From: a virus
Lineage: Duplodnaviria > Heunggongvirae > Uroviricota > Caudoviricetes
IMG/VR virus record: IMGVR_UViG_2541047898_000010
Length of the DNA stretch: 41,067 nucleotides
Reading direction: 5' to 3' (one strand)
The notes beneath the pieces were generated by a model that worked only from the letters and a program-made list of their open reading frames with translations, made no database searches and was not told where the DNA came from. Both the position numbers and the translations under genes were made by a program. Below are positions 2,587 to 41,067 of the stretch, piece by piece. The first letter of the stretch is position 1. Each line of letters opens with the position of its first letter.

Positions 2587-4053
2587 ATGAAAAGAAAACA
2601 ATATTTTTCTACAATACTGACATGCACAATGCTATTTGTTCTGCCTATAATAATCGCCAATGTTTACTATATAGATGATAATTATAGGTCTATAACTGGC
2701 GATGACGCGTGGCACATAGATGGCCGCCCTTTATCAGACTTATTAATGTACATCGTTAATGGGAATACTCATTTAACAGATACTTCCCCATTACCAACTT
2801 TCATTTCAATTATACTTTTATCAGTAAGTAGTTATTCATTCTCTAAAAGGTACATTGGTTTTAATCATGGTGTAATCCCATTTACTTTGATACCACTTTG
2901 TATTTTTGCCAGCCCATTTTTCATTGAGAATGTAGTTTATAAATTTGATGTGCTTCCAATGTGTGCATCTATTAGCTTATCTTATTTGTTTATAAATGTA
3001 AGTATAGCAAATAGATTTCTCAAGTTGCTGTGTCTATCTGTAATAGTCACATGCATATTATCTGCTTACCAAGCATCTATAAACTTTTTGCTATCACTAG
3101 TTCTATGTGAGTTCTTATCAAGATACAACAACAATGTAAAGAACTTATTTTCTTTTATTATTGAAACAATGGCGTCTCTTTGTATTGGTGCTTTTATTTA
3201 TTTAAAGATTATACTTCCTATTTTTCTTATAACACCTGAGTCCTCAGATCACCCAATGCTAGAGGCGCAAAATATTATTGGTGTTGCTTACAGCAATTCT
3301 CTGTATTACTTAAACTTAATATGGATATCAATACCTGAATCATGGCGATATATCTACTTGTTATTATTTGCTATGTCTATTATTTGCGCAATATGTATTG
3401 CAATAATCAAAAAGGAAAATGGAATTACTGGATTGATTCTATGCCTTATTGCTGGTCTATCGCCGATCATTTCCGTCTTGTGTTCATTTATAAGCCTATC
3501 AACCCTATCTTCGCCATTGCCATTCCCAAGAGTCATGATAGGATTCTCTGGTACATGCCTATTTATTGCAATGGTTATATTTGAGTTCACAAAATCTTTT
3601 AGGGCTAAGGTATTCTATATATTAGCAATACCAGTCTGGTTTTCTTTTGGTATGTACTATTCATATGGAAACGCTTTACGAGCAAGCAGCGATATTACTG
3701 ATGCTATATTTAACAATATAAAAGATGATGTATTTTCATTAACAAAGAAAGAAGACTCTGTAATATTATTCCACGGAGCAACACCAAAAAGCAAAGTGTT
3801 GTTAAACTCAATTAAGAATTACCCTATAATAGGTGGTTTGGTTCCAGATTACCTTACAAACTGGACTTTACCTTATACATATATGTCAAGAATAGGAATT
3901 TCCTATGTAAAAGATTATAGCGTCAATGCTGATGATATAATAAATAACAATAATTTTTGTTCTAATTCTGATAGAATAGAACGATATAATTATAATGTTC
4001 TATTTTTTGATGATATTTCAATAATAGATTTCAGTAAAGAACTTTGCAGGTAA
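2587..4053 (+). CDS. Serotype-specific O-antigen glucosyltransferase (Gtr type-specific, GtrC-like)
   Basis: 488 aa, strongly hydrophobic multi-pass protein, markedly AT-rich compared with neighbours, third gene of a gtrAB cassette. Confidence 0.7.
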   Translation: MKRKQYFSTILTCTMLFVLPIIIANVYYIDDNYRSITGDDAWHIDGRPLSDLLMYIVNGNTHLTDTSPLPTFISIILLSVSSYSFSKRYIGFNHGVIPFTLIPLCIFASPFFIENVVYKFDVLPMCASISLSYLFINVSIANRFLKLLCLSVIVTCILSAYQASINFLLSLVLCEFLSRYNNNVKNLFSFIIETMASLCIGAFIYLKIILPIFLITPESSDHPMLEAQNIIGVAYSNSLYYLNLIWISIPESWRYIYLLLFAMSIICAICIAIIKKENGITGLILCLIAGLSPIISVLCSFISLSTLSSPLPFPRVMIGFSGTCLFIAMVIFEFTKSFRAKVFYILAIPVWFSFGMYYSYGNALRASSDITDAIFNNIKDDVFSLTKKEDSVILFHGATPKSKVLLNSIKNYPIIGGLVPDYLTNWTLPYTYMSRIGISYVKDYSVNADDIINNNNFCSNSDRIERYNYNVLFFDDISIIDFSKELCR

Positions 4054-4055
4054 AA

Positions 4056-4085
4056 AAAGCCCTCTTTAGTGAGGGCTGTTTTTTC
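4056..4085. terminator. Bidirectional intrinsic terminator between convergent gtr cassette and tailspike gene
   Basis: A-run, stem agccctc (4058-4064) / gagggct (4071-4077), then T-run gtttttt. Confidence 0.6.
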
Positions 4086-5934
4086 ACTCAAATAAAGTTT
4101 CCATAATGTATGTGATGCTACCAGTAAATTTAGATGTGGTGCTAATGCTAGAGTCCTGGAGTGGGCTGGTTGCAGGAATTTGGTGATTGTAGAAGTCTAT
4201 AGATGTTGACCCTCTTTCTATAGCAATGGAACACATCCCCACACCAGGTTGTAGTCCTGTAGCAATGGATACAATTCCACTGGCGCGGTTTGACGAAGGG
4301 TAAGGTAAATCCCTGATTTTCATTGCTCCAGTCTGCCCGCTGAATCCATTTAATTCCAAAGAAAATTCGACTGTAACAAGGCCTCCGTCTTTCCTGAATT
4401 TTATATCCGCTGACGCACCTGAAATTCCAACCGTGCTCGTACCAAATGTTATTCTTGCCCCATCAAGAGAGCCTTTAGAGATGAATGGCTCAGGAACTAT
4501 GGACTCAGATGCACCTGTTGCACGATATAAATATTTGTTACCTGGGGTATTAACAATAACAGTAGATCCTGACGCCCATGGACCAGAGCCAATAACAGGC
4601 AACTCTCCACTCTCAAACAGACTGTTAGTAAACACCAAGTTGTTGCCAGGACCGTGTATAAACACGTCGTATTTATATGTTCCACCAGATCTAAAATTGT
4701 TAATTGTTATCCTGTTTTGTGTGCCGTTAATGGATATAAGTGGGCTTTGATCATTGGCGATAGGCAGACATCGGAAAGAATCTATGTTGATTGTGTTCTC
4801 ATTAAGGAATGCTAATGCAGAACCATAATCCAAAGTTTTAGCTCTTGCTTGTTCACAACCACAACCTAATAAATTGATATTAGAACACTTATCAAAAAAA
4901 TAAGCTGTACTTGTGGTTCCATCAGATGCGCATCCTATGAGATTAGAATAACTGACGTTTTCTAAACGAAAAGCCCCGGGAGTCGTATCACCATACTCGT
5001 CTGGTGAGGCGCACCAAACATTGGTATAGGTAGTAGATGTTCCACCATTCTGCCTTATCTGGCCCCATGTCGCGATGTTAGTTAGCGTTGTCAGCCAAAC
5101 ATCATTCATCAAAATAGCGGTCTTAGCATTCTTTACCCCTATCCGCTCAAGAGCATATGCTTGCCCTGCATTTATAGCCAGTCCACATTCTCCTCCAAGA
5201 TCATCAGCCTCTAGCGTAATATCTCTTAATGTCACCCTCTGTGGAAAAGTTTCATAAGATGGAGCCTCAGAATCAACATAAGCTACCGTATCAACAGTAA
5301 ACTCTGGTGCTGATGAGGATTGCCCAGGCTTTAATGTTACAGTTGCATTACCGGTTTTTTTAAATCTCTTTGTGGTTTGAATTTCTGTCCCAGATAGAAT
5401 GAACTGATAATCATGATCTCCATGGTAGGTTTTAAATGAGCTGAATTTAAATCCATCTATTGGGGTGTTCACGTTACCAATGATGTTAGGAAGTTTTTCT
5501 CCGAGAGTGTCACCCACATTGCTTTGGGTGCCGCTTTCTGGGTTTGTGTATCCAACCAGGTTTGCGCCAACTCCTGATCCTAACTCTTGTCTCAATTGGT
5601 CTGGATCATACTTCAGCACATTAGGGAAATAGAATTGCTGAGCACCATATGCATCATAAACAGCCATAGAATGGCCTTGCACGGTAACGAATTTGGCAAT
5701 CTGTCCGTTATATACCGGGTAACCAGCAGCGTTAATGATGATTGGTTGCGAAACAGGAACGTGAGAGCCGTCTTCGTTCTCCACATAAACCTGAATCTGG
5801 TTTTCAGTATTTACCGGATCAGTGTCAATTTTTCCGATATAAATCTTTCCATTAGCTACGGCTTTAAAAGAACGAGCCATAGTGAAGAGTTGCGAAGGCA
5901 TGCTTACTACAACATTGGCTGTAATGTCTGTCAT
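4084..5934 (-). CDS. Tailspike protein (P22/Sf6-type head-binding N-terminus, distinct receptor-binding domain)
   Basis: 616 aa; first ~110 aa ([11 protein letters not shown]...KIDTDPVN...VLKYDPDQ) match P22 tailspike N-terminal domain from memory; ATG at 5932-5934. Confidence 0.9.
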
Positions 5935-23657: not shown

Positions 23658-24176
23658 TCACTTTGGCAGTCCGGGGATCGATATTTGCGCCTGCTGCTCA
23701 AGCCTTTCGATTCTTGCTATGAGTTGCGGTTTTTTGATCCTGCCCCAGCGGTTCAGCAAGCGTCCTGACATACTGGCAACATCCTTTTCCTTCATGAACT
23801 CCAGCATTAACTCGTTGTGCTCTCTTTGGTATGAGTGAGCCATCTCCATCAGCCTGTCACGCATCCAATTAAATGCTTTGATAAACGCCTCTTTGATGGC
23901 GGCAGCTTTTTTGCCGGTAAACGACATGATGATGTACATCGCGCCGTCTTTGGAAATTTCATATTCAACATACTGATTACCCTTGTGTTCATAGGTAACC
24001 CGCGAAAAGTTGCTGGTTAGAAATTCATCCGAACAGTCTAGCTTTTCGATTTTCTGAATGATGTGGTGATGCTGCTTGTCGAAGTAAGCTGCTACCTTGC
24101 GGGAGGTTGTGATCACGCGATCACCAGAAACAACCACCATGTCCCGGAAATCGAGATTAGCCAATTGATGATTCAT
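23658..24176 (-). CDS. rha: Rha-family phage regulatory protein
   Basis: Track ORF starts at GTG 24212; internal ATG at 24174-24176; N-terminal Rha-type domain; in P22 rha lies after the lysis genes. Confidence 0.7.
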   Translation of the reverse strand: MNHQLANLDFRDMVVVSGDRVITTSRKVAAYFDKQHHHIIQKIEKLDCSDEFLTSNFSRVTYEHKGNQYVEYEISKDGAMYIIMSFTGKKAAAIKEAFIKAFNWMRDRLMEMAHSYQREHNELMLEFMKEKDVASMSGRLLNRWGRIKKPQLIARIERLEQQAQISIPGLPK

Positions 24177-24317
24177 AGCGTCTTTACCTTTTAGAAAGTG
24201 AGCCTGTCTCACAGAAAAGCCGCCCGAGAGAGGTCGCCACCTATAACGGCATTTCTCAGGCTCGCTTACTGAAAGGCTCTCGTTAATATGCGCGTGAGAT
24301 GCGCTGTGAAATTCAGA

Positions 24318-24343
24318 TATAAAAAGCCCCGCGAATGCGAGGC
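24318..24343 (-). terminator. Intrinsic terminator-like hairpin downstream of Rz
   Basis: Minus strand gcctcgcattcgcggggc followed by ttttta. Confidence 0.45.
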
Positions 24344-24517
24344 TAAATCCTGGTATTTGTAATGACTGGCTCTTATCTCAACGCAGCCCCTTACCGCGCG
24401 CCAGATGCTCAATATCAAGCATCAGCAATGAGATGTTTAATCTGGATTCACTCCAGAAGTGATCATCACCCTGTCTACAGAGCCAGATGTGAAGGATGAT
24501 GAGTAAAATTATCGCTA

Positions 24518-24955
24518 TCATCGAAGGCATTGCGTCCTGATGTACTCCTGCAGGTAGTTAACCTGCGCGGTTATCCTGTCGATTCCACTTCGGAGACGGT
24601 AATAATTGAGTTCAGCATCTGCTGTAAGTCTTGGGCTTTCTCCATCGCCCATGCTGCTGGCTCCGGTCGTTGACTTTGCACAGGTGGCGGCGACTTGCAG
24701 GCGCTTACGACCAGCAGAAACATCAGCACGGAGACTTTCGATAGTCGCGTTAGCATCAGCAAGCTCCTTTGTGTATCTGGCGTCGAGTTCTGCTACATCA
24801 CGTTGACGCTTCTGCATGTCAGCGATGATGGATGTGGCTTTATCGCGCTGTTCTTTATAGGTAATGGCGTTATCACGGTAATGATTAACAGCCCATGACA
24901 GACAGACGATGATGCAGATAACCAGAGCGGAGATAATCGCGGTGACTCTGCTCAT
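24518..24955 (-). CDS. Rz: Rz i-spanin
   Basis: 145 aa; N-terminal TM helix then coiled-coil periplasmic domain; follows endolysin. Confidence 0.85.
24571..24756 (-). CDS. Rz1: Rz1 o-spanin lipoprotein embedded in Rz
   Basis: +1 frame inside Rz; ATG at 24754-24756; lipobox-like LVVSAC; proline-rich. Confidence 0.75.
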
Positions 24956-26457: not shown

Positions 26458-27081
26458 CTAACGTGTGACCGCGTTCAAAATGTTGTCTGCGATTGACTCT
26501 TCCTTGTGGCATTGCACCACCAGAGCGTCATACAGCGGCTTAACAGTTCGTGACCAGGTGGGTTGGGTAAGGTTGGGGATTAGCATCGTTACAGCGCGAT
26601 ATGCGGCGCTTGCTGGCATCCTAGAATAGCCGACGCCTTTGCATCTTCCGCACTCTTTCTCGACAACTCTCCCCCACTGCTCTGTTTTGGCAATATCAAC
26701 GGCCCGGCCAGTACCGTGGCAATCTCTGCATCTTGCGCCCGGTGTCGCGGCACTACGGCAATAATCCGCATAAGCGAATGTTGCGAGCACTTGCAGTACC
26801 TTCGCCTTAGTATTTCCTTCGAGCTTTGCCACACCACGGTATTTCCCCGATACCTTGTGTGCAAATTGCATCAGATAGTTGATAGCCTTTTGTTTGTCGT
26901 TCTGGCTGAGTTCATGCTTACCGCAGAATGCAGCCATTCCGAATCCGGCTTGTGATTGCGCCATCCCCATGGCAGCCATCACATCAGTACCGGAAAGAGA
27001 GTCAGAAGCCGTGGCCCGTGGTGAGTCGCTCATCATCGGGCTTTTTGGCGAATGAAATTTAGCTACGCTTTCGAGTCTCAT
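26458..27081 (-). CDS. Q: Late antiterminator Q (lambda type)
   Basis: 207 aa; zinc-finger CRDCHGTG...CGRCKGVG; near identical to lambda Q. Confidence 0.9.
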   Translation of the reverse strand: MRLESVAKFHSPKSPMMSDSPRATASDSLSGTDVMAAMGMAQSQAGFGMAAFCGKHELSQNDKQKAINYLMQFAHKVSGKYRGVAKLEGNTKAKVLQVLATFAYADYCRSAATPGARCRDCHGTGRAVDIAKTEQWGRVVEKECGRCKGVGYSRMPASAAYRAVTMLIPNLTQPTWSRTVKPLYDALVVQCHKEESIADNILNAVTR

Positions 27082-28881: not shown

Positions 28882-29405
28882 GCAGCCCTCCTGACGCCCT
28901 GCCCGATCGCCATCAATGCCGCTTTGGATACGGTAGTAAACATCCGTCGAGGGCTGATGAACGGTCGCCAAATCAGCAGCATGGAGCCTTTGCTGCTTCC
29001 CTTCTTCTCCAGCCCTGTCGATGGTTCGATAAAATTAATCCGCCCATCAGTGATGATGCGAACTTCGTCAACGCTATCCAGAGCCTTGCTGAACCATCCG
29101 ACTGACATATCCTCTGGCACAAGCATCACTACCGTCTGTCGCTGTTGTATGCACTGCTCAGCGGCTTTTTCCACCCACGGCCTGATATTGCTATACGGTG
29201 GGTTATTCCAGATTGCACCGTGGCTTATCCACTCAGAATTTAGCGCGTCGTCGGCCTCAGTTAACCAGTGAGCGCACAGAGCATTTTTGTCGCTCGCTGC
29301 CGAATCCAGCCAGAATCCAAACTCAATATCCAGTGCATCAAAAAGCCAAAGCGGCGTTTGCCAGCAGTCCTTGTCGTGTGCTGGCGTATTTGATTTGATA
29401 GTCAT
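28878..29405 (-). CDS. DNA N6-adenine methyltransferase (phage Dam-like, NPPY motif)
   Basis: ATG 29403-29405 overlaps ninB stop (ATGA); [12 protein letters not shown]...IWNNPPYSN motif. Confidence 0.75.
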
Positions 29406-30662: not shown

Positions 30663-32039
30663 TCATACGTCAGCCCCTTGTGCATATCGTCTGCCACGCG
30701 CAGCGGGTGCATTTGATGTTGTGCAAATCTGTCTGGCTTCATCCTGGTCACATGCAACAAAGTGTCCGTTGCAGAACCGCTGGTAAACCGTACCAAGCGA
30801 GCCAAAACGGTTTTTCGTCACGATGATTTCAGCAAATGGCGCGGCGCTACTGTTCTCGTCATATACCGCTTCCCGATAGAGCATGATGATTGAGTCTGCG
30901 TCCTGTTCAATGCTTCCTGAATCACGCAAATCTGCGTTTGTCGGGCGTTTGTTTGGTCGCTTCTCAACATCGCGCGAAAGCTGACTCAGGGAGATAACTG
31001 GCGTTTTCAGGTCTTTCGCCATCGCCTTAAGGCTTCCTGAGATGTGAGCAATTGCGAGGTCGTTGCGGTCTGCTTTCGGCTTCTCAATCAGGCCAAGATA
31101 ATCCGCCATGATGAGTGAGAGGTTTGGATTTTCCTGTTTGTGCCGCTCTGCGATTGAGCGAATTTCTTCTACCGATAACCGCGAGGCATCGACTACCCAT
31201 ACATCCAAATCTGCAAGCTGACTCATGCCGTTAGCAACACGCGCCCAGCCTTCGTCATCCATCGATGCAGGATTTCGCAGTACGCTAACCGACATCCTCC
31301 CGGCGTTGGCAATGCTTCGCTCTGCAATCTGCAATGCGCTCATTTCCATCGAGAAAATCAACACTCCGCGCCGGACGTCAGAACCAGGAATAACGCGGCT
31401 TGCCACGCCTTCGGCAATCTTCAGCGCCAGTTCGGTTTTCCCCATACCAGGACGAGCGGCGATTATCACCAGATCTTCCGCGTTCATCCCTCCGGTGATG
31501 GCATCAAGTTCTTCGATTCCGGTCTTCAGGGTATCGGACTCTTCTCCGTTCCTCAGACGCCTGTCAAGCGTGTCAGTGTAGTCAGTAATGATTTCCCCTA
31601 ACCGTACAGGTTTTACCTCGTCACGGGGCTTTCTGATGGCTGAAAGACGCTTTACAAGTTCATCCATCGCCTGACTCGATGCGTCGATGGTTCCGCTCTG
31701 AATTGGTTCACGCATTTCATCCATGATTTCCAGCACCAGACGGCGGTGATAGTTATCCGCGACCATTCCGGCATATCCCTTCAGGTTTGCGGCACTCGGG
31801 CAGTTTTTGCTGGTCATCAGGATTGACGTGAAATGCTCCTCTCCGCACGCCTCGGCAACCATCAGCGCGTCGATTAGGTTTCTGTTTCGCGCCTGCTTGC
31901 GGATAACCTCGAAGGCTTTCCGGTAGAGCGGAATTGAAAACGCTTCCGGCTCCAGCGTTGCCAGAACGTCGCTGGCGGTTGGTGTTAATCCACCAATCAG
32001 CAAGCCACCGATAACGCTCGCTTCGATATCCTGTCTCAT
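30663..32039 (-). CDS. Replicative DNA helicase (DnaB-like, P22 gene 12 type)
   Basis: 458 aa; Walker [13 protein letters not shown]; ATGA overlap with initiator gene. Confidence 0.85.
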
Positions 32040-32866
32040 GCAATCCCCCTGTCTGCAAACTTCCCTTCCCGTACTCCAGTTAACGAATCTTCCCTCAGCA
32101 GGTAATCAAAATCAGCTGTCCAGCCCGTGTCGTTGTCTCCGAAGTAAAACGGCTTGGCCTGATGCACAAACGCCCTGACATACGCTCTGAAACCGTCCAC
32201 GTTTGGCGTTTTCAGTTGCGGGATGATTTTCTTCAGGCGGCGTTTGCGTTTCTCGTTGACCGCAACAGCGTGTGGCAGTCTGTCACCGACTTCGGTGTTG
32301 TAGGCGTTCAGGAAGGATTCATAGTCGATTCGTTCTGCCTTGCGACGTTCAGGTTTAACCTGCCCATCGCCGCCCCCGTTAGGGGGTAAGGGGGTATTTG
32401 TATTTATTGTCTTTTGTATATTGTCTTTTGTGTTTGACTGATTCGGTAAATTGCTTTTTACCGATTTGGTGAAGGTTTGTTTTACCGAATTGGTAAATGT
32501 TTTACCGAATCCGTTAACTTTCGTTTTCCACTCGGAAATGTTTGTATTCATACCAACTTGACGCCCCACCTGAATGAGAACTCCCATTCTGATAAGCTCG
32601 TTTTTGGCGGTAGAGCATTTGGTTGGTGCCATGCCAGTGAGTTCAGCGAACTGTTCGTTTCCGATCCAATCTATTTTTTTGTTGTAACCGTATGTCTTGC
32701 GCCACACAGCCATAACAATCAGTAACTGATGTAGAGTAAGTCCAGAAAGCATGGCGGCTTCTAACAGTGTGTTTGCAGTCCGAGTGTAGCCATCTTCGAG
32801 TTCTGCCACGCGATGCTCCACGACCTCCAGTTGAGGCCTGTAATCAGCTAACTTAACGACGCCCAT
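32036..32866 (-). CDS. Replication initiator (lambda O / P22 gene 18 type) containing ori iterons
   Basis: 276 aa; N-terminal O-like domain; internal repetitive coding segment corresponds to DNA iterons; ATG 32864-32866 with AGGAG. Confidence 0.75.
32395..32520. repeat. Origin of replication: AT-rich tract plus iterons (TTTACCGAAT family, direct and inverted; ATTGTCTTTTGT x2)
   Basis: Repeats read directly: attgtcttttgt at 32406 and 32420; ttttaccgat/ttttaccgaat at about 32454, 32478, 32498; inverted copy at 32441. Confidence 0.6.
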
Positions 32867-33459: not shown

Positions 33460-34812
<1,353 letters not shown>

Positions 34813-35005: not shown

Positions 35006-35115
35006 AGCATTCAAAGCAGAAAGCTTTGAGTAGCGCGAAATGCAGCTGCAAGACAGCAACCGTGGAGATAAGCATCACGGCGCGTTACTCAAAGCTAACT
35101 GACAGGAGAATCCAG

Positions 35116-35442
35116 ATGGATGCACAAACACGCCGCCGCGAACGTCGCGCAGAGAAACAGGCTCAATGGAAAGCAGCAAATCCCCTGTTGGTTGGGGTAA
35201 GCGCAAAACCAGTTAACCGCCCCATTCTCTCGCTGAATCGCAAACCGAAATCACGAGTAGAAAGCGCACTGAATCCGATAGACCTTACGGTGCTGGCTGA
35301 ATACCACGAACAGATTGAAAGCAACCTGCAACGTATTGAGCGAAAGAATAAGCGCACATGGTACAGAAAGCCACGCAGTGAAATGGGTGTGACTTGTGTT
35401 GGTCGCCAGAAAATGAAATTAGGCAGCAAACCACTTATTTGA
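35116..35442 (+). CDS. N: Antiterminator N (lambda type)
   Basis: 108 aa from ATG 35116 with AGGAG: MDAQTRRRERRAEKQAQWKAANPLLVGVSAKPVNRPILSLNRKPKSRVESALNPIDLTVLAEYH... Confidence 0.85.
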   Translation: MDAQTRRRERRAEKQAQWKAANPLLVGVSAKPVNRPILSLNRKPKSRVESALNPIDLTVLAEYHEQIESNLQRIERKNKRTWYRKPRSEMGVTCVGRQKMKLGSKPLI

Positions 35443-36745: not shown

Positions 36746-36916
36746 ATGTCACTTGCAACCACAGTGAAGGAGAGCAAGTTACAGAGACGCATGTACACGC
36801 AGAAAGCTCTCTGGTATCGCCATAATGGCGACCGCGAAGGAATGCGGGTATGCCTTAATTTGTCCCGAGTCGAAGTATTAAATCAGCGTTATTTCCTTGG
36901 GCCGTGTCCATTCTGA
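36746..36916 (+). CDS. Hypothetical small protein before erf (56 codons)
   Basis: ATG 36746 preceded by AAGGAGA; MSLATTVKESKLQRRMYTQKALWYRHNGDREGMRVCLNLSRVEVLNQRYFLGPCPF. Confidence 0.4.
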   Translation: MSLATTVKESKLQRRMYTQKALWYRHNGDREGMRVCLNLSRVEVLNQRYFLGPCPF

Positions 36917-36926
36917 GAACAATCAT

Positions 36927-37532
36927 ATGAGCAAAGAATTTTACGCAAGACTGGCAGCTATTCAGGAGAATCTGAACGCGCCAAAGAATCAGTACAACTC
37001 ATTCGGTAAATATAAATACAGAAGCTGCGAAGATATTCTTGAAGGCGTTAAGCCGTTACTGAATGGTCTGTTTTTATCAATCAGCGATGAAGTTGTGTTG
37101 ATTGGTGATCGGTATTACGTGAAAGCCACGGCAACTATTACCGATGGCGAAAACAGCCATACGGCAACCGCTCTTGCACGAGAGGAAGAAAGCAAGAAAG
37201 GAATGGATTCTGCACAAGTTACGGGAGCTACAAGCTCTTATGCACGCAAGTATTGCCTCAATGGTTTGTTCGGCATTGATGATGCGAAAGATGCAGATAC
37301 AGACGAGCATAAACATCAGCAGAACGCAGCAGCAAAGCAATCAAAACCATCACCTACACCTGAACAGGTTCTAAAAGCATTCACTGACGCAGCAATGCAG
37401 AAAAACACCGTAGAAGAGCTTAAACAGGCGTTCGCCAAAGCGTGGAAGATGCTCGAAGGCACACCTGAGCAGCACAAAGCGCAGGACGTTTACAACATCA
37501 GACGAGACGAATTAGAAGGAGCTGCTGCTTAA
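36927..37532 (+). CDS. erf: Erf single-strand annealing recombinase
   Basis: 201 aa from ATG 36927: MSKEFYARLAAIQENLNAPKNQYNSFGKYKYRSCEDILEGVKPLL... resembles P22 Erf. Confidence 0.85.
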   Translation: MSKEFYARLAAIQENLNAPKNQYNSFGKYKYRSCEDILEGVKPLLNGLFLSISDEVVLIGDRYYVKATATITDGENSHTATALAREEESKKGMDSAQVTGATSSYARKYCLNGLFGIDDAKDADTDEHKHQQNAAAKQSKPSPTPEQVLKAFTDAAMQKNTVEELKQAFAKAWKMLEGTPEQHKAQDVYNIRRDELEGAAA

Positions 37533-40157: not shown

Positions 40158-40271
40158 TAGTGAACTATTATATCTATTTGTATTAAAAGAGTTTTTATAA
40201 AATAAATCTTCCAAAGCATGTAAAAACACTGTTAATCTTAACGTGTGTGAAACGTGAAGAGAGGTGTTGAA

Positions 40272-40553
40272 ATGAGCATTCATGATTTGTGTGAAGATCA
40301 AGAGCAATGGGCTATGCAGACCCTTATGGGATCAGGAGTTCTTGCAAGGTGCAGAATCCATAACGATGTAATTTTAGACAGCGGAAATGATGCTTCTTCT
40401 GCTTATAAATTAGGAACTTACCTATATCAAAAAGATAATAGCTGCAACTTATTCAATACTCTTACTGAAGCCCGCGACGCAATAAAGGATGCATATGAAT
40501 CGTATTGTGGGATTGATGATTGCCCACAATGCTCAAAATACATTGACGATTAA
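40272..40553 (+). CDS. AT-rich moron protein with C-terminal CPQC motif
   Basis: ATG 40272 preceded by GAAGAGAGG; AT-rich upstream leader; terminator downstream. Confidence 0.45.
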   Translation: MSIHDLCEDQEQWAMQTLMGSGVLARCRIHNDVILDSGNDASSAYKLGTYLYQKDNSCNLFNTLTEARDAIKDAYESYCGIDDCPQCSKYIDD

Positions 40554-40573
40554 TAATATGAACAAGTAACTAT

Positions 40574-40599
40574 CCTCGCACTCGCGGGGATTTCTTTTA
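40574..40599 (+). terminator. Intrinsic terminator after moron gene
   Basis: cctcgcactcgcgggg followed by atttctttt. Confidence 0.5.
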
Positions 40600-40641
40600 T
40601 CTGAACTCGCTACGGCGGGTTTTGTTTTATGGAGATGATAA

Positions 40642-40809
40642 ATGCACTTTCGAGTCACAGGTGAATGGAATGGAGAGCCATTCAACAGAGTTATCGAAGC
40701 AGAGAACATCAATGACTGCTATGACCACTGGATGCTATGGGCGCAGATAGCACATGCAGACATAACCAATATTCGAATTGAAGAACTGAAAGAACACCAA
40801 GCCGCCTGA
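40642..40809 (+). CDS. Possible small protein upstream of xis (55 codons)
   Basis: ATG preceded by GGAG: MHFRVTGEWNGEPFNRVIEAENINDCYDHWMLWAQIAHADITNIRIEELKEHQAA. Confidence 0.35.
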   Translation: MHFRVTGEWNGEPFNRVIEAENINDCYDHWMLWAQIAHADITNIRIEELKEHQAA

Positions 40810-40822
40810 TGGCGGTTTTTTA
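40798..40822 (+). terminator. Intrinsic terminator
   Basis: gccgcc-tgat-ggcgg followed by ttttttta. Confidence 0.5.
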
Positions 40823-40866: not shown

Positions 40867-41067
40867 ATGCAACACGAACTACAGCCTGATTCACTGGTTG
40901 ATTTGAAATTCATCATGGCCGATACTGGCTTCGGTAAAACCTTCATCTATGACCGGATTAAGTCCGGCGACCTGCCAAAAGCCAAAGTTATCCACGGGCG
41001 AGCAAGATGGTTATATCGTGACCATTGTGAATTCAAAAATAAGCTCTTAAGCCGCGCCAATGGGTAA
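40867..41067 (+). CDS. xis: Excisionase / recombination directionality factor (AlpA/TorI-like)
   Basis: 66 aa MQHELQPDSLVDLKFIMADTGFGKTFIYDRIKSGDLPKAKVIHGRARWLYRDH...; last gene, on same strand as int. Confidence 0.8.
   Translation: MQHELQPDSLVDLKFIMADTGFGKTFIYDRIKSGDLPKAKVIHGRARWLYRDHCEFKNKLLSRANG

Follow-up and report, generated by a model that had tools for sequence, protein, structure and literature searches.

Near-identical hairpins in two operons of a P22-like phage: putative intrinsic terminators at the joints of lambdoid mosaics

Several described systems resemble the elements reported here. The lambda sites tL1-tL3 and tR1-tR' are internal terminators of operons that are antiterminated by N or Q. 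In HK620 and Sf6, Clark et al. in 2001 and Casjens et al. in 2004 reportedly described "boundary sequences", to which the linker idea of modular evolution is akin. The moron, reportedly introduced by Juhala et al. in 2000, is a gene that sits as an insert between phage genes and brings a promoter and a terminator of its own. REP/BIME and Correia-type elements are small palindromic units that are found in many contexts and can act as terminators or stabilisers. Short conserved flanking sequences are an established route to lambdoid mosaicism, and boundary sequences have been cited as proposed foci of homologous exchange (Martinsohn et al., 2008, PMC2327257); relaxed homologous recombination by Rad52-like recombinases, an Erf among them, has been shown by experiment to shape lambdoid mosaics (PMC2327257, PMC3945230), and roughly half of the mosaic borders have been attributed to illegitimate events (PMC2327257). 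Morons have also been treated by Cumby et al. (2012, PMC3594210), and processive antitermination is known to bypass ordinary short-stem terminators (PMC10325885). In the lambda exo-xis region, three terminators, t3, t4 and t5, have been predicted with Erpin and RNAmotif (Bloch et al., 2014, PMC4195576, Table 4).

The stretch of DNA analyzed here (the window; 41,067 bases) is a complete or nearly complete genome of a P22-like (Lederbergvirus) temperate phage whose closest relatives are the Escherichia phages Gally, CurroJimenez and HK620 and the Shigella phage Sf6. The sequence as given opens with the integrase gene (1-1158) and closes with a xis-like gene (40867..41067, plus strand), and the two are neighbors across the window ends. 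Rightward and late genes are on the minus strand: a Q-family late antiterminator (26458..27081; PF03589, E = 1.3e-57), holin, lysozyme, the Rz spanin gene that ends the lysis cassette (24518..24955; PF03245, E = 1.3e-36), a conserved 50-aa ORF of the Sf6 gene 65/epsilon34 gp67 type (24378..24530; phrog_11822) that overlaps the end of Rz, a rha-type regulator/antirepressor gene (23658..24212; PF09669, phrog_518), and then terminase and the virion genes. The leftward early operon occupies the plus strand: a repressor gene (33779..34411), an N-like antiterminator gene (35026..35442; PF11438, phrog_271), an Erf-family single-strand annealing recombinase (36897..37532; PF04404, phrog_155), SSB, Abc2, an Ea22-like gene, an ea8.5-family gene (40254..40553; Pfam PF20735), a 55-aa ORF of the lambda "p35" type (40642..40809; phrog_676) and xis. 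One of the two hairpins considered here, site 1, lies on the minus strand in the 3' UTR of the 50-aa ORF, and the position of the Q-family gene puts it inside the Q-dependent late operon. The other, site 2, lies on the plus strand just past the ea8.5-family gene, and the position of the N-like gene puts it toward the far end of the N-dependent pL operon.

What sets these two sites apart? The core CCTCGCAYTCGCGGGG occurs exactly twice in the window, at 24327-24342 on the minus strand (with an ATTC loop) and at 40574-40589 on the plus strand (with an ACTC loop); with up to 2 mismatches allowed, a dinucleotide shuffle gives 0.02 expected matches, and two or more matches were found in 0 of 100 shuffles. 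An earlier note on this DNA, made from the sequence alone, had called the two hairpins near-identical and terminator-like, and both descriptions stand: each copy is an 8-bp stem with a 4-nt loop and a U-tract behind it, oriented with its own operon. Site 1 (24325..24344, minus) reads AGCCTCGC-ATTC-GCGGGGCT, followed by a U-tract and tail, TTTT-ATATCTGAA (24312..24324), with which the 35-nt stretch that it has in common with site 2 ends; its RNA, AGCCUCGC-AUUC-GCGGGGCU+UUUUAUAU, is predicted to fold with -16.5 kcal/mol (z = -4.2, fold versus shuffles). Site 2 (40572..40591, plus) reads ATCCTCGC-ACTC-GCGGGGAT, with TTCTTTTA-TCTGAA as U-tract and tail (40592..40605), and the unit ends in ATCTGAA; its RNA, AUCCUCGC-ACUC-GCGGGGAU+UUCUUUUAU, is predicted to fold with -12.1 kcal/mol (z = -4.8, likewise against shuffles). 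The stems hold 6 or 5 G-C pairs and differ by two changes that compensate each other, pair 2 being G-C at site 1 and U-A at site 2. The U-tracts UUUUUAUAU and UUUCUUUUAU follow directly 3' of the stems, and there is no T-run on the opposite strands. Both sites are intergenic and co-oriented with the gene before them, site 1 lying 33 nt past the stop of the 50-aa ORF and site 2 lying 18 nt past that of the ea8.5-family gene, and they rank among the best terminator-like sites of the window. Rfam 15 gave no match at the gathering threshold anywhere in the window.

Site 2 has a direct counterpart in lambda. In the lambda genome (NC_001416), the same hairpin occupies 29338-29353, with ea8.5 on one side and the small ORF lambdap35 on the other, and the two versions differ only in flanking bases and in one base of the U-tract: site 2 is the predicted t3. 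The second hairpin and the ribosome-binding site that follow t3 are also the same in both genomes. In the window, this tandem hairpin is GAACTCGC-TACG-GCGGGTTT with TGTTTTA and then a GGAG ribosome-binding site (40603..40634, plus), equal to lambda t4; a third terminator-like hairpin, AAGCCGCC-TGAT-GGCGGTTT with a T-run, lies just before xis (40799..40818, plus) and is the equivalent of t5. The gene order ea8.5 - t3 - t4 - small ORF - t5 - xis - int is thus common to lambda and the window, and site 2 and the two hairpins after it have the same sequences, in the same order, as t3-t5 of Bloch et al. (PMC4195576). That study covers lambda and phi24B in silico; it draws no link from t3 to a late-operon hairpin and does not remark on t3 and t4 as a conserved cassette between unrelated genes. 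Here, site 2 and the t4 hairpin form such a cassette, conserved over ~75 nt and followed by the 55-aa ORF, and the record of Salmonella phage MG40 annotates the t4-type hairpin as "terminator". A search of the literature for transcript ends measured at the lambda ea8.5-xis terminators turned up none, and the earlier terminator calls for both sites are all in silico. Two other identifications were rejected: site 2 is not lambda tL3, which adjoins the 3' end of exo and does not lie at 29.34 kb, and the conserved TAACAAT before site 2 is not the stop of the upstream gene, since the real stops (window, lambda, Sf6) lie 18-33 nt further upstream. The moron after which the earlier note had placed site 2 gives way to a gene of the pL operon that, judged by its sequence, is a member of the ea8.5 family, syntenic with lambda, and no demonstrable moron; indeed, no promoter-like site of the kind that belongs to a moron was found upstream of the ea8.5-like gene or of the 50-aa ORF.

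Site 1 has been noticed in a relative: the homologous hairpin of epsilon34 (EU570103) is annotated as a "Rho-independent terminator", the terminator sites of epsilon34 having been assigned from position and similarity to P22 (PMC2629481). Site 1 had been described as following Rz; it does lie in the late operon past Rz, but the gene that it directly follows is the 50-aa ORF. The modules around both sites vary, the rha-type gene being one of at least five alternatives downstream of site 1 in relatives and the ea8.5-family gene one of at least ten alternatives upstream of site 2. How constant are the hairpins themselves? Both positions were re-sampled with anchors outside the hairpin (122 t3 loci and 121 site-1 loci), which avoids the bias of a search by the core. 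At the t3 position, ~80% of the loci have t3 or close variants, 11% have another sequence and 8% have none; in the 11%, the TTTCTTTT-ATCTGAA-t4 tail is unchanged, and what stands ahead of it is mostly a different hairpin. The site 1 hairpin is present in 81% of its 121 loci, and the other 19% have a different hairpin (AAGCC...GGCTT) with a poor U-tract. In the commonest allele (~32 of the 121), CATTACAAA is followed by 40 nt including the hairpin, by CATTACAAA again and by a second hairpin; the alleles that lack the site 1 hairpin have a single CATTACAAA that runs into the second hairpin, in a diverged form, and different downstream genes. The function of site 1 is therefore dispensable or replaceable, given its absence from 19% of the loci and the poor U-tract of the hairpin that replaces it.

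The reading that we consider likely is that both elements are intrinsic terminators in antiterminated operons, that flanks reassort around the units, and that the two copies are most likely one recombined unit and not an autonomous mobile element. By analogy with established lambda and P22 biology, unmodified polymerase would halt at the hairpins, and polymerase modified by N or Q would read through. The distal genes (xis and int beyond site 2; rha and the virion genes beyond site 1) would then be expressed only from the antiterminated transcript and would be shielded from stray transcription, such as that in a lysogen: xis and int would be guarded by three successive hairpins, and one would stand between the lysis cassette and rha with the virion genes. 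Each terminator is a short conserved non-coding unit at the boundary of a gene block, with a length of ~35-45 nt for site 1 and of ~75 nt for site 2 together with t4, and is for this reason common to phages whose neighboring genes are unrelated. The flanks have reassorted around it many times, probably mainly by homologous or homeologous exchange within the unit, at a low frequency for which 35-75 nt would offer enough identity, through phage annealing proteins or RecA, with occasional illegitimate joins directly beside the terminator; in this phage, Erf is the candidate enzyme for exchange at short conserved units. The two copies in the window would have arisen when one unit recombined into a second operon.

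A search for the motif in other phage genomes, which the earlier note had recommended, not only leads to lambda t3 but also reveals that both units are widespread. Of the annotated phage records, 316 contain the site-2 cassette (lambda, 434, Stx1/Stx2, P22-like and Salmonella phages), as do 2,221 of the 5,426 complete E. coli genomes; the site-1 stretch is found in 40 phage records and in 1,784 of the same 5,426 genomes, only 415 of which have both window flanks. The matches in these E. coli genomes lie at ~3,200 and ~2,000 places, respectively. The units are thus present in 33-41% of complete E. coli genomes, at 1-5 places per genome (median 1), and the contexts that were sampled are phage genes. 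As had been proposed, both hairpins mark module boundaries: they sit exactly where homology between related phages breaks. The breakpoints of site 1 against other phages cluster at ~24304, 24319 and 24356, and those of site 2 lie at 40562-40572; among 120 loci mapped to the window, the ends around site 2 are sharply clustered, at -7/-12 on the left and at +14, +28, +50-55 and +235 on the right.

Around these joints, flanks are exchanged on both sides. The 125 exact-core instances have 35 upstream and 31 downstream flank families, which are combinatorial in the lambda-type unit; in the site-1 type, a single upstream family meets five or more downstream modules, some of which also have other upstream partners. 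Both units are therefore boundary sequences in the sense of a short conserved sequence with unrelated sequence on either side. Variants inside the site-2 cassette also occur in varied combinations: 65 complete instances of the t3-t4 cassette contain all four gametes for 5' flank x 3' flank, T-tract x t4, loop x t4 and t4 x 3' flank, and the T-tract variant is linked to the adjacent 5' flank. Combinatorial flanks and four gametes are the pattern that exchange at or inside the unit predicts, although recurrent transitions (loop C/T, t4 A/G) or illegitimate joins next to the unit could also produce it. This hairpin is in good company: other terminators, which had not been used to collect loci, also lie between unrelated flanks (GCCTGCTGGTAATCGCAGGC, 4 x 4; CCCGGCCTCAGCGCCGGG, 7 x 3), so being a joint is a general property of terminators in this gene pool and is not special to the hairpin studied here.

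If the joints coincide with the units, did the crossovers take place inside them? In an account of the Hendrix type, joints arise at random by illegitimate recombination, those at gene boundaries survive, and the terminator rides with one of its flanks instead of serving as the site of exchange. We regard this as a serious contender that nonetheless falls short of an even chance. It fits the junctions that lie immediately outside the hairpin and U-tract (+14, -2, -7), the different hairpins found before the same tail, the other terminators that are joints too, and the published share of illegitimate borders (PMC2327257). It also fits the filled allele with the duplicated CATTACAAA, in which ATTGC is joined to CATTACAAA with little or no homology; at least this one joint looks illegitimate. 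Units of 35-75 nt are, besides, near the lower limit for efficient homologous exchange. What random joining does not readily produce is the same unit with many partners on both sides and identical junction positions; nor does it account simply for internal polymorphisms that reassort with a distance-dependent linkage, a pattern that is more easily had from repeated exchange in shared sequence.

Exchange within each unit leaves a separate question: do the two copies in the window descend from one sequence? A local alignment of the sites with 100-nt flanks has 35 columns, 30 identical, with 1 gap. The shared stretch starts 2 nt before the core, passes through the U-tract and ends at the common ATCTGAA; its 5' edge is abrupt, and the 5' flanks of the two sites have no similarity (886 of 2000 shuffles score equally). 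The alignment that had been suggested as a check thus extends beyond the GC stem, but it finds nothing in the 5' flank and a 3' tail that is unexceptional. The tail (T-run and ATCTGAA) was dropped as strong proof of homology: its shuffle p is 0.02, yet in a fairer control an equally good match is reached by 7-12% of 633 tails from unrelated terminators, and there is no clear excess of ATCTG behind U-tracts. The cores are more telling. Among the 19 terminator-like hairpins of the window, no pair but sites 1 and 2 has cores that differ by 2 mismatches or fewer; the other 170 pairs do not come near. In a 2.56-Mb pool of related phage DNA with ~500 distinct hairpin cores, at most 0.12 close pairs are expected per window when all close pairs are counted, and at most 0.024 near-identical pairs when allelic pairs of one site are removed, which gives p ~0.02 for the core identity of the two sites. 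The excess over chance is smaller than in the raw 16-mer statistic because both elements are constrained to be a hairpin followed by Ts.

Independent terminators could also have arrived at the same efficient stem-loop by chance or selection, with no common origin and no spread. At the scale of databases, such convergence evidently occurs: ~20 of the first 120 exact-core matches in IMG/VR lie in loci that have no DNA in common with lambdoid phages, at 40-61% GC and with a T-run after the 16-mer, and in Pseudomonas phage Littlefix 26 of 26 bases are identical. A stem of 6 bp with a 4-nt loop holds only ~20 bits of information, and the bare core is not diagnostic at database scale; the exact-core scan was accordingly set aside as evidence of spread, its matches in unrelated phages being best read as convergence. 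The commonplace tail match points the same way. For the pair in the window, convergence is nevertheless unlikely, if well short of negligible, set against the rarity of such pairs in a 41-kb genome. Common descent of the two copies, likely but unproven, is favored because both units circulate in one recombining gene pool, because the shared stretch stops at ATCTGAA, which is an independent unit boundary in Stx2a phages, where an unrelated gene comes next, so that the unit has this end in three independent 3' contexts, and because stem and tail travel together in a further variant (L157) that has the same stem, a different loop and nearly the same tail, between yet other genes. The recombinational spread that the earlier note had proposed is thus borne out by the flanks, which reassort, but is only likely as descent of the two copies from one family.

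The evolution of the stems bears on what the hairpins do. In the anchor-sampled homologous variants, 95.4% of stem cells are paired, against 39-58% in slid controls; pair 2 switches between U-A and G-C from one site type to the other, and a U.G wobble is replaced only by C-G or U-A. The covariation is modest because the element is short and conserved. What is conserved is a hairpin and then a U-tract, a property that fits an intrinsic terminator, and both sites have the features by which such terminators are recognized: a GC-rich stem, a 3' U-tract, an intergenic, co-oriented position, and pairing kept in evolution. Could the hairpins instead act mainly in RNA processing or stability (as 3' stabilisers or sib-like RNase III sites) or as protein-binding sites? 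During the lytic cycle, polymerase would be antiterminated and the hairpins would persist inside the mRNA, which makes a stabiliser plausible, and site 1 can be dispensed with in some phages. However, the U-tract sits directly after the stem and is retained when the hairpin is replaced, which points specifically to intrinsic termination; typical RNase III substrates have longer stems; and no Rfam family matches. We therefore consider such a main role improbable.

The "mobile cassette" of the earlier note fares worse. A unit of ~37-49 nt (hairpin, U-tract and ATCTGAA-type tail) might be a portable terminator that reaches new intergenic positions by active copying, either through insertion with a short target duplication or as a hot spot for an annealing recombinase. 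Active copying would explain why one genome has the unit in two operons, why a 49-nt indel lies between copies of CATTACAAA and why the contexts are so many, but it is very improbable: the signature that resembles a target duplication, the indel between CATTACAAA repeats, is found in only one allele class, and no exact empty counterpart of the filled allele turned up in the 121 anchored loci or in ~30 sampled full-coverage E. coli matches, all of which are the filled allele, in two pieces that span 134-136 nt. Transposon-like insertion with target duplication was rejected on the lack of this exact empty allele. Since (AGT)CATTACAAA also begins the downstream module where other genes precede that module, the simplest reading is that a genome with hairpin 1 and another with hairpin 2 underwent an unequal and essentially non-homologous crossover, which duplicated the short sequence common to them, CATTACAAA. 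Nor does the hairpin seem to travel with a rha/antirepressor module: the gene right after the Stx2a unit is antirepressor-like, but in tblastn it shows no homology to the Rha of the window. Least probable of all is an autonomous or passively mobilized miniature element of the REP/MITE kind that inserts between genes with a short target duplication and carries the terminator along; for all that the commonest site-1 allele brackets 40 nt that include the hairpin with a 9-bp direct repeat, CATTACAAA, that ~19% of the site-1 loci have a single CATTACAAA and no hairpin, and that the unit is found in dozens of contexts, we reject it, because CATTACAAA is the natural edge of both neighboring modules, the two copies of the window and the lambda-type copies have no direct repeat, there are only 1-5 copies per E. 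coli genome, neither an associated transposase nor a matching Rfam family was seen, and the "empty" alleles carry the diverged second hairpin. The spread of the units is explained by the exchange of the phage modules that flank them.

How, then, do these units compare with the described systems? Like the boundary sequences of HK620 and Sf6, they are short conserved stretches at the borders of gene blocks with differing adjacent genes; unlike those of Sf6, the conserved unit is here the terminator itself, and the same hairpin is found in two operons. They are not the Sf6 sequences under another name: of the Sf6 elements near the sites (AF547987; bsq2, bsq3, bsq7), bsq7 lies inside Rz and bsq2 over xis/pI, and neither overlaps the hairpins. 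With morons they share the position of the terminator, at the 3' end of an accessory gene that varies, and the presence/absence variation of neighboring accessory genes, but here the terminator persists through changes of the genes on either side and is not tied to one moron. As in the case of the internal lambda terminators, the stems are short, the operons encode a processive antiterminator, and the distal genes would depend on antitermination; however, sites 1 and 2 lie outside the lambda set that has been characterized experimentally. In contrast to REP/BIME and Correia-type elements, the units are not present in high copy number on the chromosome, show neither a consistent target duplication nor a cognate transposase, and do not resemble those elements in sequence. 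As far as we have found, the recurrence of lambda t3 in a P22-like late operon and the use of t3 and t4 together as a widely shared linker are new.

These findings leave current concepts unchanged: the two units are a clear new example of a known pattern, that of lambdoid boundary sequences and terminators, and not a new kind of element; only if the portable unit were real after all would it represent an unrecognized class of miniature mobile regulatory cassette in temperate phages. Their value lies in part in being a test case for mosaicism, in which homologous exchange at short linkers can be set against illegitimate joins that are filtered by selection, since the linker is short, has a plausible function and scorable internal polymorphisms, and is carried by at least a third of the complete E. 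coli genomes. Both units could also be labeled as terminators in hundreds of phage and prophage records. Finally, the strong conservation of t3, t4 and t5 across lambda-like, Stx and P22-like phages argues that these predicted terminators may serve as functional insulators before xis and int.

Where other phages carry the tail and second hairpin that go with the lambda predicted terminators t3 and t4, the hairpin at the t3 position is not always the same one. At four sampled loci (L144, L135, L123 and L128), the t3 position is occupied by an unrelated hairpin, for example GAACCCGC-CGAG-TGCGGGTT, or by none at all, before the common TTTCTTTT-ATCTGAA-t4 tail. Because differing or absent hairpins precede an identical tail, a joint can separate a hairpin from the U-tract that belongs to it.

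The minus-strand hairpin that follows Rz and a 50-aa ORF is site 1 (core 24327-24342). At the site-1 position, other phages (L220, L218, L247, L094 and others) have a further boundary hairpin, AAGCC...GGCTT with TGATAATG after it, which either takes the place of the site-1 terminator or comes after it; it exists in two versions that differ in a compensatory manner (AGCCACTC/GAGTGGCT vs AGCCTATC/GGTGGGCT), and several alternative downstream modules also lie behind it. The site-1 hairpin and U-tract, AGCCTCGCATTCGCGGGGCTTTTTAT, are matched at 26 of 26 bases in Littlefix (MG775260, 63466-63491; locus L012), an unrelated 75-kb Pseudomonas phage; this identity, striking as it is, is read as convergence. 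In two Stx2a-converting phages (LC645411 and LC616035; loci L284 and L285), TAACAAT, the conserved sequence before the t3 hairpin, occurs again at the start of the coding sequence of the antirepressor-like gene that lies downstream, within its first codons (ATGATTAACAAT), and thus forms a 7-nt direct repeat on both sides of the unit; the recurrence could be due to chance.

Elsewhere in the window, a bidirectional terminator-like hairpin, AGCCCTC...GAGGGCT (4058-4077, both strands), with T-runs on either strand, separates the convergent ORFs 2587-4053 (plus) and 4084-5934 (minus). The record seems to be circularly permuted, with the opening point between xis and int, since its first base begins the integrase ATG (gene 1-1158) and its last base ends the xis stop codon (gene 40867-41067). 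In Sf6 and HK620 the two genes are separated by a small ORF and attP, an arrangement not seen at the window's xis/int junction. Iteron-like repeats, TTTTACCGA(A/T)T, lie at 32434-32527 in three to four copies spaced by 20-24 nt, accompanied by inverted copies; direct and inverted copies together build a dyad with an 18-bp stem (32457-32497). The array, which falls within a 276-aa ORF (32036-32866, minus) immediately upstream of a helicase-sized ORF, is probably a replication origin inside an O-like initiator gene.

Between site 1 and rha (23658-24212, minus), and abutting the terminator tail, is TTCACA-N16-TATTAA (around 24278-24306, minus), with a GCGC...GCGC dyad between the two hexamers; a CGCGC-N6-GCGCG dyad is kept at the equivalent place in other alleles, of the epsilon34 type and others. 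This candidate element may be an operator-controlled rha promoter. If so, rha would be a separately regulated, terminator-insulated unit.
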